From the NCBI GenBank assembly GCA_964361405.1, contig CAYIAA010000006.1, positions 1-44,662 of the forward strand: a stretch of 44,662 nt of DNA. Direction: 5' to 3'. Positions 5,909 through 22,899 of the stretch are shown here, piece after piece. A program made the position numbers and the translations under genes. Numbering within the stretch: the first letter of the stretch is position 1; every line of letters starts with the position of its first letter. The stretch is from an uncultured Candidatus Saccharibacteria bacterium. GTDB lineage: Bacteria; Patescibacteriota; Minisyncoccia; Phycocordibacterales; UBA3531. The notes under the pieces are model-generated. The model searched no databases and was not told where the DNA came from. It saw only the letters and a list, made by a program, of their open reading frames with translations.

Positions 5909-6994
5909 ATGAGGAATTTCAATCGTCCCCTCCTTGTAACGCTCATTATCCTTATCCTCGGGGGCTTTTTCATCTTTACCTCCGCATCCCTCGGCCTTCT
6001 TGCCCGAGAAGACGCCAGCGTAGTGCCTAATCTCATTTACCAACTCACTGCCGCACTCCTCGGCACCGCTTTTCTCATCGGCGCATCAAAGCTGAACTAT
6101 CATCTGTGGCAAAAGTATTCGATTTTCATTTTCGTTTTAGCCCTCCTCCTCACCGCAAGTGTATTCATTCCCGGTTTTGGGATTGAACACGGAGGAGCCC
6201 GACGATGGATTCCCATAGGACCCCTTTCATTTCAACCGGCTGAATTCCTCAAACTCGGTTTCGTCCTCTACTTCGCGGCGTGCGCCGCTAAAGGAATGGA
6301 AAGGCCCTTGGGCAGTGGACCTTCTCTCATAGCACTCCTCGCGCTTGCGGGGGTTGTGCTTCTCTTCCAGCCAAACACCAGTATTCTTGTCATCATGTCA
6401 CTTGCGGGACTTGCGATGTTTTTCGTAAGCGGAGCAAAAAAAAGACATTTAGCGATACTGTGTTGTATCGGACTACTTGGTTTTCTCCTCCTTGCCTATG
6501 AGCGGCCCTACATCAAAGACCGCATCCTGACATTTTGGAAATTTGAAGAATCAAACCTCCTCGACGAAGGTTACCAAATTGATCAGTCACTCATCGCAAT
6601 CGGTTCCGGCGGTTTTATGGGACGGGGGTTTGGACAAAGCATCCAAAAATTCGGCTACTTGCCAGAGCCGATTGGAGACTCCATATTCGCCGTTGCCGCT
6701 GAAGAATTCGGATTTATTGGGAGTGCACTTATCGTCATTGTACTTACTGTCTTTGCCGTGATTGGACTTCGGATAGCATCTCACGCGACCGACGCATACG
6801 GTAGACTCGTTGTTATAGGGATTGTTATACTGATTACATCGCAGTCCCTCTTAAATATCGCCGCAATGACGGGACTTGCGCCGCTCTCCGGTATTCCTAT
6901 TGTGTTTATGAGTAAAGGCGGGACGGCGCTCGTTTTTGCTCTTCTTGAGGTCGGTATTATGCTCAATGTTTCGAAATATCAAAAGCTGACATGA
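5909..6994 (+). CDS. ftsW: SEDS family peptidoglycan polymerase FtsW
   Basis: GARRWI, FQPAEFLK, GYQIDQSLIAIGSGG, YLPEPIGDSIF; between mraY and murG. Confidence 0.9.
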   Translation: MRNFNRPLLVTLIILILGGFFIFTSASLGLLAREDASVVPNLIYQLTAALLGTAFLIGASKLNYHLWQKYSIFIFVLALLLTASVFIPGFGIEHGGARRWIPIGPLSFQPAEFLKLGFVLYFAACAAKGMERPLGSGPSLIALLALAGVVLLFQPNTSILVIMSLAGLAMFFVSGAKKRHLAILCCIGLLGFLLLAYERPYIKDRILTFWKFEESNLLDEGYQIDQSLIAIGSGGFMGRGFGQSIQKFGYLPEPIGDSIFAVAAEEFGFIGSALIVIVLTVFAVIGLRIASHATDAYGRLVVIGIVILITSQSLLNIAAMTGLAPLSGIPIVFMSKGGTALVFALLEVGIMLNVSKYQKLT

Positions 6995-8124
6995 GAATAC
7001 TATTCACGGGCGGAGGATCCGGCGGGCATTTTTATCCTATTATCGCCATCGCCGAAGCACTTCGTGCGAAAGTCGAAGAGGAGAAAATCACTGGGCTGAA
7101 ACTTTATTTTATGTCGACGAGCCCTTATGACCCGGAACAGCTCTTGCGTCACCAAATTATCTACAAAAGAAATACCGCAGGGAAAATGCGCCTCTATTTC
7201 TCACTTTTGAATTTCACAGATTTTTTCAGAATGGTGTGGGGAACTCTTACCGCGCTCGTCTCGGTTTTTCTTCTTTACCCCGATGTCGTTGTCGGAAAAG
7301 GAGGATATGCAAGTTTTCCGGCACTATTTGCAGCTCGAATTTTTGGGATTCCTGTTGTAATTCACGAGTCGGATACTGTGCCAGGAAAGGTCAATCGGTG
7401 GGCGGGAAAATTCGCGGAGAGAATCGCACTCTCTTACAAAGCGGCATATCGATATTTCCCCGAAAAAAAGACGGCGGTAACTGGGCACCCAATACGACTC
7501 GCGCTCCGAGAAGGAATAGATCGCGCGAGCGCTCTCCACCTATTCAGTGAAAGCGGAAATACGACACCCGTCATCCTTGTTATCGGAGGTTCGCAAGGAT
7601 CTCAACTCATAAACGATATTATGCTTGATATACTTCCACGGCTTCTCGAGCATTACGTCATTATACACCAGACAGGGAGAGCGCATTTTAACTCGATAAA
7701 AAGCCGCGCCCGAGTGGTTCTCGAAAACGTCAAAGCCGCTCCACATTATCATCTGTACCCGTATTTAAATGATGAGGTGTACCGAGCCGCGGGCAGCGCG
7801 GCCTCTCTCGCGATATCCCGGGCCGGTTCAGGGCTCTTCGAGCTTGCAAACTTCGGAATCCCAACTATCGTGGTGCCGATTACCGTCTCTGCGGGTAACC
7901 ACCAGCAAAAAAACGCTCTTTCGTTTGCGGAGGACGGCGCAAGCATTATTATCGAAGAACCAAACTTTACCGGGAACCTGCTTCTTTCCGAAATTGATCG
8001 GATATTTAAGGATACAAAGGAATATGTGCGCATGAAGGATGCGGCTCGTTTAAGGGTAAACCCCGGTGCGGCAACGCAGATCGCGGACGAAATCGTTTCT
8101 TTGGCACTTCTGCATGAAAACTGA
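6991..8124 (+). CDS. murG: undecaprenyl-PP-MurNAc-pentapeptide GlcNAc transferase
   Basis: TGGGSGGHFYP, GGYASFP, HESD, GGSQGS, SRAG, HQQKNA. Confidence 0.96.
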   Translation: MRILFTGGGSGGHFYPIIAIAEALRAKVEEEKITGLKLYFMSTSPYDPEQLLRHQIIYKRNTAGKMRLYFSLLNFTDFFRMVWGTLTALVSVFLLYPDVVVGKGGYASFPALFAARIFGIPVVIHESDTVPGKVNRWAGKFAERIALSYKAAYRYFPEKKTAVTGHPIRLALREGIDRASALHLFSESGNTTPVILVIGGSQGSQLINDIMLDILPRLLEHYVIIHQTGRAHFNSIKSRARVVLENVKAAPHYHLYPYLNDEVYRAAGSAASLAISRAGSGLFELANFGIPTIVVPITVSAGNHQQKNALSFAEDGASIIIEEPNFTGNLLLSEIDRIFKDTKEYVRMKDAARLRVNPGAATQIADEIVSLALLHEN

Positions 8125-9487
8125 TTCAGCCTGCCTGCCGGCCAGGCAGGCCATGCCTACCGGCAGGCAGGTCGTTGTCCGCTTTGCCCCGAGTCCGACG
8201 GGCAATCTGCATATTGGGGGAGTTCGAACCGCACTTTACAATTTTCTCCACGCCCGAAAACACGGCGGCACGTTTATTCTTCGAATCGAGGATACCGACC
8301 GCGCGCGGTCACGCCCGGAATACGAGCGTGATATTTTAGAAAGCCTCGCATGGCTTGGCCTTTCTCACGATGCACTCTTTCGACAATCCGAGCGGCAAGC
8401 GATATACCGTAGCCATATCGAACGGCTCCTCGGCAAAGATATGGCATACGTAAGCGAGGAATTAAAGGATGGCATAGCGAGCTCGGTCATACGGTTCAGA
8501 AACCCTAAAAAGAGTGTTACCTTTGAGGACACTTTGCGCGGTCCCATAGCAGAAGATACAGAAGATCTGGGTGACTTTGTCATTGCTCGGGACCTTGATC
8601 AACCACTCTATCACCTTGCCGCCGTAATCGACGACTTTGAGACAGGGGTTACCCATGTAATCCGCGGTGAAGACGGCATATCGAATACCGCTCGTCAGAT
8701 ACTTCTCCAAGAGTCCCTTCAAGCCCCGCGGCCAATCTATACGCATATACCCTTAATTCTTGCCAAAGATCGCTCTAAACTCTCCAAACGCCATGGTGCC
8801 GTCTCGGCGAGTGAGTTGAAAAAAGAAGGATATTTACCTGAAGCGGTCATAAATTTTTTGGCGCTCCTCGGATGGCATCCGAAAGGGGATATGGAGTTAT
8901 TCTCAATCAATGAACTTATAGAAGAGTTTTCGCTTGAGCGAGTTCAAAAAGGAGGAGCGGTATTCGACACAGAGAAACTCAAGTGGCTTAACCGTGAATA
9001 CCTCCGTAAACTCGACCCTACGACGTTCCGAAAAGAGGCAATCGAGTACGTGCCGAAGAGTCTGCGAGAAAGCGCCAAGGCTGACCGACTCTCGGCCCTA
9101 CTTGACTCCCTCCGAGAGAGAATCAGCGTCTTTAGCGAGATAACCACTATGGGCGAGGCAGGAGAGCTTACCTACTACGTTCAAAAACCAGTCTATGACA
9201 AATCCATACTCCTTCGCGAAAGTGAAGAAGTTAAGAAAGTGACCCTCCATTTAGAAAAACTTGGGAAAATTCTCGGCTCAATCACTCCGGAACAATTTAA
9301 CGCAAAGAATATCCGTGAGTCCGTAATGCCATATGCTGAACAAGAAGGAAGAGGGAAGGTGTTGTGGCCTTTTCGTGTTGCGCTCACGGGAAAGATTCAA
9401 TCACCCGACCCATTCAGCATCTGTGAAATCCTTGGTAAGGAGGAGTCCCTTCTACGCCTCAATGAAGCACAAACATATATCGAGTAG
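8114..9487 (+). CDS. gltX: glutamyl-tRNA synthetase
   Basis: RFAPSPTGNLHIGG, LRIEDTD, VIRGED, KLSKR. Start is ATG 8114 (overlapping the murG stop) or ATG 8153. Confidence 0.96.
   Translation: MKTDSACLPARQAMPTGRQVVVRFAPSPTGNLHIGGVRTALYNFLHARKHGGTFILRIEDTDRARSRPEYERDILESLAWLGLSHDALFRQSERQAIYRSHIERLLGKDMAYVSEELKDGIASSVIRFRNPKKSVTFEDTLRGPIAEDTEDLGDFVIARDLDQPLYHLAAVIDDFETGVTHVIRGEDGISNTARQILLQESLQAPRPIYTHIPLILAKDRSKLSKRHGAVSASELKKEGYLPEAVINFLALLGWHPKGDMELFSINELIEEFSLERVQKGGAVFDTEKLKWLNREYLRKLDPTTFRKEAIEYVPKSLRESAKADRLSALLDSLRERISVFSEITTMGEAGELTYYVQKPVYDKSILLRESEEVKKVTLHLEKLGKILGSITPEQFNAKNIRESVMPYAEQEGRGKVLWPFRVALTGKIQSPDPFSICEILGKEESLLRLNEAQTYIE
8130..8171. repeat. two tandem 21-nt variants of the CCTGCCTGCCGGCAGGCAGG palindrome at the gltX N-terminus
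   Basis: CCTGCCTGCCGGCCAGGCAGG (8130-8150) plus CCATGCCTACCGGCAGGCAGG (8151-8171), compared with the perfect copy at 22599-22618. Confidence 0.85.
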
Positions 9488-22235: not shown

Positions 22236-22571
22236 CTACCTCTTTTTTGTTTTTTGAGCTTCTGTCACTGCGTTTTCAACCCATTCAGAAAGAACGTCTC
22301 GGTTTTCGAGGATTTCCTCCGGTACAAGCCAATAACTCAATGTGATGTTCTTTCTCTCCGAATAGTAGGCAAATGGCTCACTTCCCATTTTCTCATACTC
22401 CGCACGATTTCCGTTCCCCACTTTGAAATATAGTGCTCCGTCAGAAATTAGACCAAAGAACATACGATTCTTATAAATCCCCCATCCGCCAAACATAGTA
22501 CGCGACGTAATCCCCGGCACGTCTGCCAAAAGGTCCATAACATACTCATGAAAACTTGTATCCCGAGACAT
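22236..22571 (-). CDS. TfoX/Sxy N-terminal domain protein
   Basis: RTMFGGWGIY...FGLI...LYFK...PF.Y...SYWLVP..ILE. Confidence 0.88.
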   Translation of the reverse strand: MSRDTSFHEYVMDLLADVPGITSRTMFGGWGIYKNRMFFGLISDGALYFKVGNGNRAEYEKMGSEPFAYYSERKNITLSYWLVPEEILENRDVLSEWVENAVTEAQKTKKR

Positions 22572-22586
22572 TTATTTTTTTACCCA

Positions 22587-22624
22587 TGACCTTACGGGCC
22601 TGCCTGCCGGCAGGCAGGGATTCG
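22587..22624 (-). repeat. duplicated tRNA-Glu 3' end (17/18 nt identical) interrupted by a 20-bp palindrome
   Basis: TGACCTTACGGG[CCTGCCTGCCGGCAGGCAGG]GATTCG versus tRNA TGACCCTACGGGGATTCG at 22828-22845. Confidence 0.85.
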
Positions 22625-22830
22625 GTCACAACTTCCCGCTACGCGGGAGCCGCGACCCCACCATAAGGAATGCTGCCGCATGCAAGTCTAACTTATGTCA
22701 CGAATCACTAAGTCGCTTCGCTCCTAAGTGTTCGCGACCCCGGCTCGCGGTCCCACTTTTAGTGGGACATTGCTCCGCCTTCAAAAAGCTAAAAAAGTAA
22801 AGTAGTTTACTTTTTTTAATCGCTTTTTGA
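22624..22830 (-). repeat. cluster of REP-like hairpins between tRNA-Glu and its duplicated 3' end
   Basis: Hairpins at 22624-22657, 22697-22738, 22750-22768 and 22781-22830. Confidence 0.7.
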
Positions 22831-22899
22831 CCCTACGGGGATTCGAACCCCGATTCCCACCGTGAGAGGGTGATGTCCTAACCATTAGACGATAGGGCC
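22828..22899 (-). tRNA. tRNA-Glu (anticodon CTC), no encoded CCA
   Basis: GGCCCTATCGTCTAATGGTTAGGACATCACCCTCTCACGGTGGGAATCGGGGTTCGAATCCCCGTAGGGTCA folds as a cloverleaf. Confidence 0.95.

Follow-up and report, generated by a model that had tools for sequence, protein, structure and literature searches.

A doublet of a small palindromic repeat lies in frame at the start of gltX in a Patescibacteria-type genome

We analyzed a window of 44,662 nucleotides (nt), contig CAYIAA010000006.1 (C6 below) of the assembly GCA_964361405.1 of an uncultured Candidatus Saccharibacteria bacterium, in which a small palindromic repeat occupies the first codons of gltX, the gene for glutamate--tRNA ligase (GluRS). 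The genome comprises 569,703 bp in nine contigs with a marker completeness of 97.9%, and the homologues of its GluRS, MurD and TatD proteins carry the source names of Parcubacteria or Patescibacteria proteins. A murG-like gene lies directly 5′ of gltX, as it does at 9 of 11 loci from order-level relatives, and the conserved C-terminal CAT GAA of murG provides an out-of-frame ATG; in a relative (G013) gltX starts at this same ATG inside murG CAT GAA (MKPETDRNIITRF). The gltX product belongs to TIGR00464 (E 1.9e-128, 429.3 bits vs. a cut-off of 289.95), and the murG product matches TIGR01133 (E 7.6e-64) with 215.9 bits, which is under the curated cut-off of 250.25. The gltX frame is open from position 8066 with in-frame ATGs at 8114 and 8153, and an Rfam search of the window returned two tRNAs and no match at the palindromes.

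Between gltX codons 5 and 6, beginning 6 nt 3′ of the murG stop codon, lies a tandem doublet of the palindrome (Table 1), which is almost certainly a real, in-frame insertion as judged from sequence comparison. From ATG 8114 the N-terminus reads MKTDS-ACLPARQAMPTGRQ-VVVRFAPSPTG. The nearest GluRS homologues in a collection of 5.8 billion proteins, P0003 (78% identity) and P0004 (75%), begin MKTDPVVVRFAPSPTG and MKTDSIVVRFAPSPTG, respectively; that is, they read MKTDP-VVVRF and MKTDS-IVVRF where the window has MKTDS, 14 residues and VVVRF, and a MAFFT alignment leaves a clean 14-column gap in both opposite the insert. Removal of 8130–8171 leaves ACT GAT TCA GTC GTT GTC, encoding TDSVVV, and the corresponding empty site in P0003 and P0004 would be expected to show a ATGAAAACTGA-type overlap followed at once by the VVVRF codons. 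An initial annotation had described two tandem 21-nt palindrome copies totaling 42 nt in frame, which the sequence bears out, and had proposed an alignment with close homologues, from which exactly these 14 codons prove to be missing in P0003 and P0004; it had the number of residues ahead of VVVRFAPSPTG right and omitted the leading A from their sequence. Because the nearest homologues share the MKTD(S/P) start and lack only the 14 codons, we regard ATG 8114 as the ancestral start. The best GluRS identity among 41 same-order species representatives is 57%, hence no close relative is found there. The allele is real, because contigs match the insert without differences: a 21-kb contig, probably from the source study, across the insert, and a 272-nt contig of a second study, identical to the window over 7998–8269. 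Several contigs with unrelated flanks align to 8130–8171 with two to five differences. The RNA of 8090–8200 folds with −46.6 kcal/mol (z −3.7), the 42-mer forming one long hairpin.

Table 1. Features of the murG–gltX junction and the intergenic repeat copy, in positions of the window
Feature	Position	Strand	Remarks
murG-like gene	6991..8124	+	Open reading frame (ORF); stop TGA 8122-8124; last codons overlap ancestral gltX start
gltX (glutamate--tRNA ligase)	8114..9487	+	457 codons from ATG 8114 plus stop
Ancestral gltX start codon	8114..8116	+	ATG within murG CAT GAA; homologue starts MKTDP/MKTDS
In-frame insertion, 14 codons (ACLPARQAMPTGRQ)	8130..8171	+	42 nt; boundaries possibly shifted by 1 nt (8129-8170)
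Palindrome copy 1, CCTGCCTGCCGGCCAGGCAGG	8130..8150	.	21 nt; 20-mer plus one loop C (CCGG-C-CAGG)
Palindrome copy 2, CCATGCCTACCGGCAGGCAGG	8151..8171	.	21 nt; contains ATG 8153-8155
In-frame ATG at hairpin tip	8153..8155	+	Gene-caller start, 444-amino-acid (aa) product
Exact 20-nt intergenic copy	22599..22618	.	

The insert very probably belongs to a dispersed repeat family with the core 20-mer CCTGCCTRCCGGYAGGCAGG and consensus ends CCTG...CAGG, of which copy 2 can alternatively be read as a 20-mer at 8152–8171 with two substitutions. With up to three mismatches, the 20-mer has two matches in the window, whereas each of 100 shuffles gave none. The whole genome contains 23 family-like places (at most one mismatch per arm, spacer of 5–8), compared with 5 and 6 for two composition-matched control patterns, and 11 copies have exact arms, six of them 20 nt and five 21 nt long. 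About one-third of the copies lie within some 30 nt of a stop codon and at least seven lie inside open genes, as counted without proper gene calls. All frames of the core are free of stop codons, as is expected of any GC-rich 20-mer and hence not counted as an adaptation, and the encoded peptide varies with the frame (LPAGRQ, PACRQAG or CLPAGR). The intergenic copy in the window, which is 20 nt long as initially annotated, is separated by 27 nt from the downstream start of a minus-strand ORF of 111 aa (22236–22571) and lies about 210 nt from a minus-strand tRNA gene (22828–22899). A flank motif considered beside three copies, GGATTCGGTCAC, was dropped as a coincidence, being shared by only two intergenic copies.

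Pfam searches place family copies internally in MurD (NLPAGKAG), TatD (PAYRSGR), ribosomal protein L18 (ALPAGRQE) and a DUF192 protein (PAYRQTG), at the N-terminus of GrpE (GLPADRHG), and in the C-terminal tails of UDP-glucose dehydrogenase-type, RNase H-like and SOD ORFs. In murD and tatD the inserts consist of the 21-nt element, and its removal restores AAG ATG AGC and CTG CCA GAT GAG, respectively. The exact 7-aa insert of TatD (282 aa) is absent from 18 of the 19 nearest homologues, including one of 275 aa with 82% identity, and that of MurD from 17 of 19 homologues as well as, at the DNA level, from all 15 readable order-level relatives. Two distant MurD proteins (56% and 52% identity) hold NLPDGKAG and NNLP-AQAG at the same site, which was therefore struck more than once or has repeatedly lost its insert. 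The TatD homologue P0257 has another 7-residue insert (PSFAKAT) exactly where PAYRSGR sits, which suggests that this loop repeatedly accepts small inserts. The parallel drawn at the outset with in-frame Rickettsia palindromic elements (RPEs) holds, with 14 aa added to GluRS and 7 aa each to MurD and TatD.

Further features accompany these copies. A second in-frame insert in murD (L017:430-537), about 25 residues long (HLGLNRSQKRTVGPRASAPGLARKT) and lacking in the nearest homologues, consists of three other small hairpins, the 108 nt folding with −50 kcal/mol, and the homologue P0125 has a related insert. In rplR (L024:229-330), L18 is longer than solved L18 structures by an insert of about 20 residues, which starts with the 20-nt palindrome and continues rich in Lys and Glu. 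GATGAG follows the murD and tatD inserts, and neither the gltX insert nor the other copies.

The insertion brings with it a second potential start codon, ATG 8153, located 39 nt downstream of the ancestral one. We compared both with 108 confident starts of this genome, defined as ATGs that come first after an upstream stop, at most 15 codons from it, that open an ORF of at least 150 aa and that are followed by no further start for 25 codons. The regions upstream of these starts are A/T-rich and G-poor and show no Shine–Dalgarno enrichment (a Shine–Dalgarno-like word at 20 of 108 vs. about 24 expected), and their folds from −20 to +21 average −3.8 kcal/mol (standard deviation 2.9, minimum −12.1). 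ATG 8114 has a fold of −2.9 kcal/mol and a context score (position weight matrix) at the 26th percentile of the 108, compared with −28.4 kcal/mol and the 1st percentile for ATG 8153, and none of the confident starts is as structured as the latter. ATG 8114 is favored because its local context is typical, whereas ATG 8153 sits in a strong hairpin; on this modeling the ancestral ATG is the likelier of the two to be in use, so that both palindrome copies would be translated and ATG 8153 is probably a by-product of the repeat. Between 8153 and the conserved VVVRF there is no in-frame ATG, GTG or TTG, and therefore at least copy 2 is coding under either start.

The strongest competitor, which we consider unlikely but worth keeping in view, is that the gene callers are right and that translation begins at the repeat-supplied ATG 8153. 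Copy 1 would then be a hairpin, 5′ untranslated or intergenic, that follows murG, the repeat would supply just six codons (MPTGRQ), and MKTDS would be a dead remnant. Against this, the ancestral ATG has stayed intact, and so have its frame and MKTDS. The stored protein is of this shorter form, and MPTGRQVVVRF leaves nine residues before RFAPSPTG, inside the range of 3 to 26 that precede this motif across 97 GluRS proteins. Passages of a survey of repetitive extragenic palindromes (REPs) likewise argue that many REPs at predicted N-termini are extragenic (Di Nocera et al. 2013, PMC3733652). The position of ATG 8153 at the hairpin tip, well beyond the most structured confident start, and its upstream composition speak against this use, even if part of the hairpin would be opened by ribosomes that terminate at 8124, and in a genome without a Shine–Dalgarno signal there is none for the AGGCAGG to mimic.

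In an AlphaFold2 model of the 457-aa GluRS (mean predicted local distance difference test score, pLDDT, 90.9), residues 1–16 have pLDDT below 50 and the first strand spans residues 21–24. An addition of 14 residues ahead of this strand should, on the model, be harmless. We favor, as the probable explanation overall, a tolerated in-frame doublet with the ancestral start kept. A doublet of a small dispersed hairpin-forming repeat would have landed just past the murG stop, and the landing spot would fall inside gltX codons because gltX starts within the end of murG; the usual niche of the element is plausibly just behind a gene, a place taken here by the first gltX codons. The copy that persisted would be a 3n variant (21 + 21) of a family with a usual unit of 20 nt, variants that shift the frame of the essential, single-copy gltX having been lost. 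Translation would still proceed from ATG 8114, coupled to murG termination, through the hairpin, and add the 14 residues to an unstructured N-terminal tail before the first strand of the catalytic domain, an insert that is presumably tolerated rather than useful.

It is a good deal less probable that an RNA-level function explains why the hairpin persists, such as protection of the murG mRNA 3′ end, transcription pausing or tuning of gltX relative to murG translation, with an incidental coding consequence. The closeness of the hairpin to the murG stop codon, the share of the family found near stop codons and the strong fold would suit such a role, as would the account, in passages of the REP survey, of REPs as lying mainly just 3′ of ORFs and being thought of as RNA elements (Di Nocera et al. 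2013, PMC3733652). Another point in its favor comes from G014, of another family of the order, where three copies of the palindrome family (19- and 20-nt forms, L052:1592-1784) fill a 464-nt murG–gltX spacer, that is, where the junction has been colonized too, but outside coding sequence. The nearest relatives, P0003 and P0004, are nevertheless without the hairpin, the copies within murD and tatD are unable to play such a role, and no T-run follows the gltX hairpin on the plus strand (tail TCGTTGTCCGC). The same tail rules out an intrinsic terminator on that strand, a match at 8153–8127 lying on the minus strand only; the terminator scan found two terminator-like sites against 1.1 expected, neither of them the plus-strand gltX hairpin.

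The 3n length of the gltX doublet can be set against the family at large. Scanning JGI metagenome contigs for doublets yielded 106 stretches, and the matches listed contain 83 doublets in 80 loci, of which 64 are 40 nt long, 16 are 41 nt, two are 42 nt and one is 43 nt. Doublets are thus a normal state of the family, as with REPINs, and from the sequences a single doublet insertion would be at least as likely as two events. The bases that make the gltX units 21 nt long are found elsewhere as well. The CCGGCCAGG form of copy 1 (CCGG-C-CAGG) occurs three times in this genome, including C1:117188 and the non-coding C5:27093 (no long ORF), and, of the 19 doublets from other organisms that are not 40 nt long, 6 contain the CCATGCCT junction with its extra A. 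One of the two metagenome 42-mers (L171) differs from that of the window at two positions; its host gene, in which it is in frame, has PolyA_pol and HD domains. The second (L101) falls in miaA. As the +1 forms recur elsewhere, the 3n form and its ATG therefore predate arrival in gltX.

The initial annotation had instead envisaged a pair of 20-nt insertions that followed one another, a +1 change rescuing the frame after each, or else an extra A that gave rise to an ATG on the spot. Although 20 nt is the commonest unit (in this genome 6 of the 11 copies with exact arms, in five others of the order 26 of 37) and both gltX copies are 21 nt long, we consider this stepwise course very improbable: loss of the frame at codon 6 in an aminoacyl-tRNA synthetase gene present only once would presumably be lethal before any rescue, the same extra bases occur in non-coding copies and in doublets of other organisms, including the 42-mer with two differences in another gene, and doublets are a standard form of the family, as the metagenome stretches show.

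A length filter, by which only 3n variants survive in conserved coding sequence, fits better than +1 rescue. The 37 exact-arm copies from the five other genomes are 19 nt (10), 20 nt (26) and 22 nt (1) long, with none of 21 nt, and they lie mostly at gene borders, only three having at least 25 open codons on both sides. Among the listed metagenome doublets, at least 50 open codons on both sides are found for 7 of 64 40-mers, 7 of 16 41-mers and both 42-mers, counts that are not independent, as L131/L134, L150/L166, L106/L145 and L155/L174 are the same sequence from different samples. In ten of these open frames, Pfam recognized genes for both 42-mers, for two of four 41-mers (integrase, Mur ligase) and for none of four 40-mers. 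The expectation that copies inside genes would be biased to multiples of three is realized in gltX (42 nt), murD (21 nt) and tatD (21 nt).

Several observations weigh against the tolerated-doublet explanation or parts of it. Some copies of 20 nt are within open genes too (L18, DUF192 and the GrpE N-terminus), these regions align poorly, and the length rule is established for gltX, murD and tatD only; moreover, an in-frame length has a one in three chance anyway. The exact 42-mer, allowing up to three mismatches, is found in this genome alone among 301 genomes of the order, that is, in 0 of the 300 others. Gene callers put the gltX start at 8153, with a stored product of 444 aa, and a start there would make the frame of copy 1 irrelevant. 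The empty site is read from the protein N-termini of P0003 and P0004 and not from their DNA. Finally, neither a transposase nor a target motif nor a target-site duplication came to light, mobility being deduced from distribution alone.

That distribution is wide. The core is present in 11 of the 41 same-order genomes, each from a different family, while a reversed-pattern control gave 0 everywhere, and in at least 118 stretches among 185,579 species genomes against a naive expectation of about 2 in 596 Gb. The 80 matches listed include Patescibacteria groups, Bacteroidota, Omnitrophota, Planctomycetota/PVC (Planctomycetes–Verrucomicrobia–Chlamydiae), Chloroflexi, Gammaproteobacteria, Deltaproteobacteria/Bdellovibrionales, Ignavibacteria and Nitrospirota/Thermodesulfovibrionales, so that the core is found in at least nine phyla, cultured Bacteroidota among them. 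Allowing one mismatch, there are 38 copies in the genome behind L228 (G302, an Olivibacter oleidegradans record) and seven in a Flagellimonas genome, the control giving 0 in both. The copies in G302 are mostly of a G/T loop-closing variant and are clustered in a few regions of its contigs C1 and C5, for example 10 in about 90 kb of C5.

Elsewhere the core forms the tip of longer genome-specific inverted repeats. Nested copies, in which the 20-mer lies exactly in the center (CCG^G) of another copy (L225:1059-1098, L258:456-495, L264:2950-2989), look as if the element had inserted into the loop of its own hairpin. At two loci of the candidate phyla radiation (CPR), L221:4017-4060 and L251:2105-2146, the 20-mer comes right after tRNA-like 5′ acceptor and D-arm sequence (…GTAGCTCAGTGGTAGA); ARAGORN found no tRNA that includes the palindrome at either locus, and these may be broken or interrupted tRNA genes.

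No mobilizing enzyme could be linked to the family. This genome has one PF01797 (Y1_Tnp) match, C5:58012-58209, and another perfect palindrome, GTCAAGGGTTCCCCTTGAC, brackets its gene at C5:57753 and C5:58492 (region C5:57706-58510) and has more copies at C1:46449 and C4:61909; gene and palindrome have the look of a REPtron- or TIRtron-like pair that is separate from the CCTGCC family. A tblastn search with five Y1 proteins gave no match in 634 kb around 113 palindrome-bearing loci. Genomes with and without the core are not separated by PF01797, which 8 of 11 carriers and 18 of 30 non-carriers have, and the 38-copy genome G302 has no PF01797 match. The gltX, murD and tatD junctions show no target-site duplication, removal of the inserts restoring homologue-like sequence. 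The identical hairpin is multi-copy in genomes that range from those of CPR cells, with 0.57 Mb, to that of a cultured Bacteroidota isolate, with 6.5 Mb. We offer as a speculation, which we hold to be doubtful, that the 20-nt core is a cosmopolitan micro-element spread or regenerated without a REP-associated tyrosine transposase (RAYT) by a not yet recognized enzyme or process. If true, the stop-free and length-flexible core would supply essential proteins quite generally with small peptide insertions.

These findings bear on annotation, genome evolution and the view of mobile elements. The repeat brings its own ATG and, on the favored explanation, has misled the gene caller, a trap that will be met again at any gene start occupied by the family. 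Small as it is, at 0.57 Mb, the genome puts up with repeat insertions in gltX, murD, tatD and probably rplR, and the length filter, with 20-nt units between genes and 21- or 42-nt forms in conserved coding sequence, would be a case of purifying selection sorting repeat variants. An identical 20-nt hairpin in at least nine phyla without a nearby RAYT misfits the species-specific REP/RAYT picture and points to another way of spreading.

Several known systems resemble the gltX family in part. REPINs, in the work of Bertels and Rainey, are reportedly two adjacent palindromes that form one long hairpin, are copied as a unit and are mobilized by RAYT transposases. The gltX doublet likewise folds as one hairpin, and doublets recur in the 106 metagenome stretches; it differs from the REPIN–RAYT pairing in that the one Y1_Tnp gene found here has the other palindrome on its flanks and that the genome with 38 copies has no Y1_Tnp match. 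MITEs, or miniature inverted-repeat transposable elements, have terminal inverted repeats and a target-site duplication, whereas the gltX, murD and tatD junctions are without a duplicated flank.

REPs, as passages of the survey describe them, are similarly short (about 20–40 bp) dispersed palindromes, mostly near gene ends and with some intragenic copies (Di Nocera et al. 2013, PMC3733652). According to the same passages, intragenic GTAG- or CGTC-tagged REPs are a minority, over half of the intragenic inserts are dimers, and the hosts include tRNA synthetase genes, N-terminal cases leaving the true start in doubt. REPs carry a GTAG or CGTC end tetranucleotide, however, which the gltX family is without, GTAG being only internal in variants with T at position 13; and REPs are species-specific and tied to RAYTs, whereas no RAYT lies beside any copy examined here, the unit is only 20–21 nt and the core is common to many phyla. 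Our literature search found no account of such repeats in CPR and no match to the exact 20-mer string, and the supplementary tables of Di Nocera et al. may hold closer precedents. RPEs, in a passage of a MITE review, are in-frame palindromic repeats of about 150 bp in unrelated Rickettsia housekeeping genes (PMC10969869). So far as that passage goes, RPEs and the gltX family alike add an in-frame peptide to unrelated housekeeping proteins that the fold tolerates, but RPEs measure about 100–150 bp, have their own conserved peptide and occur only in Rickettsia, compared with 20–42 nt, 7 or 14 residues and a cosmopolitan range with a Patescibacteria-type host for the gltX family. Hairpin repeats inside genes are thus known from other bacteria, and what sets this family apart is the tiny unit, free of a GTAG or CGTC tag and of a RAYT link, with a core that crosses phyla.

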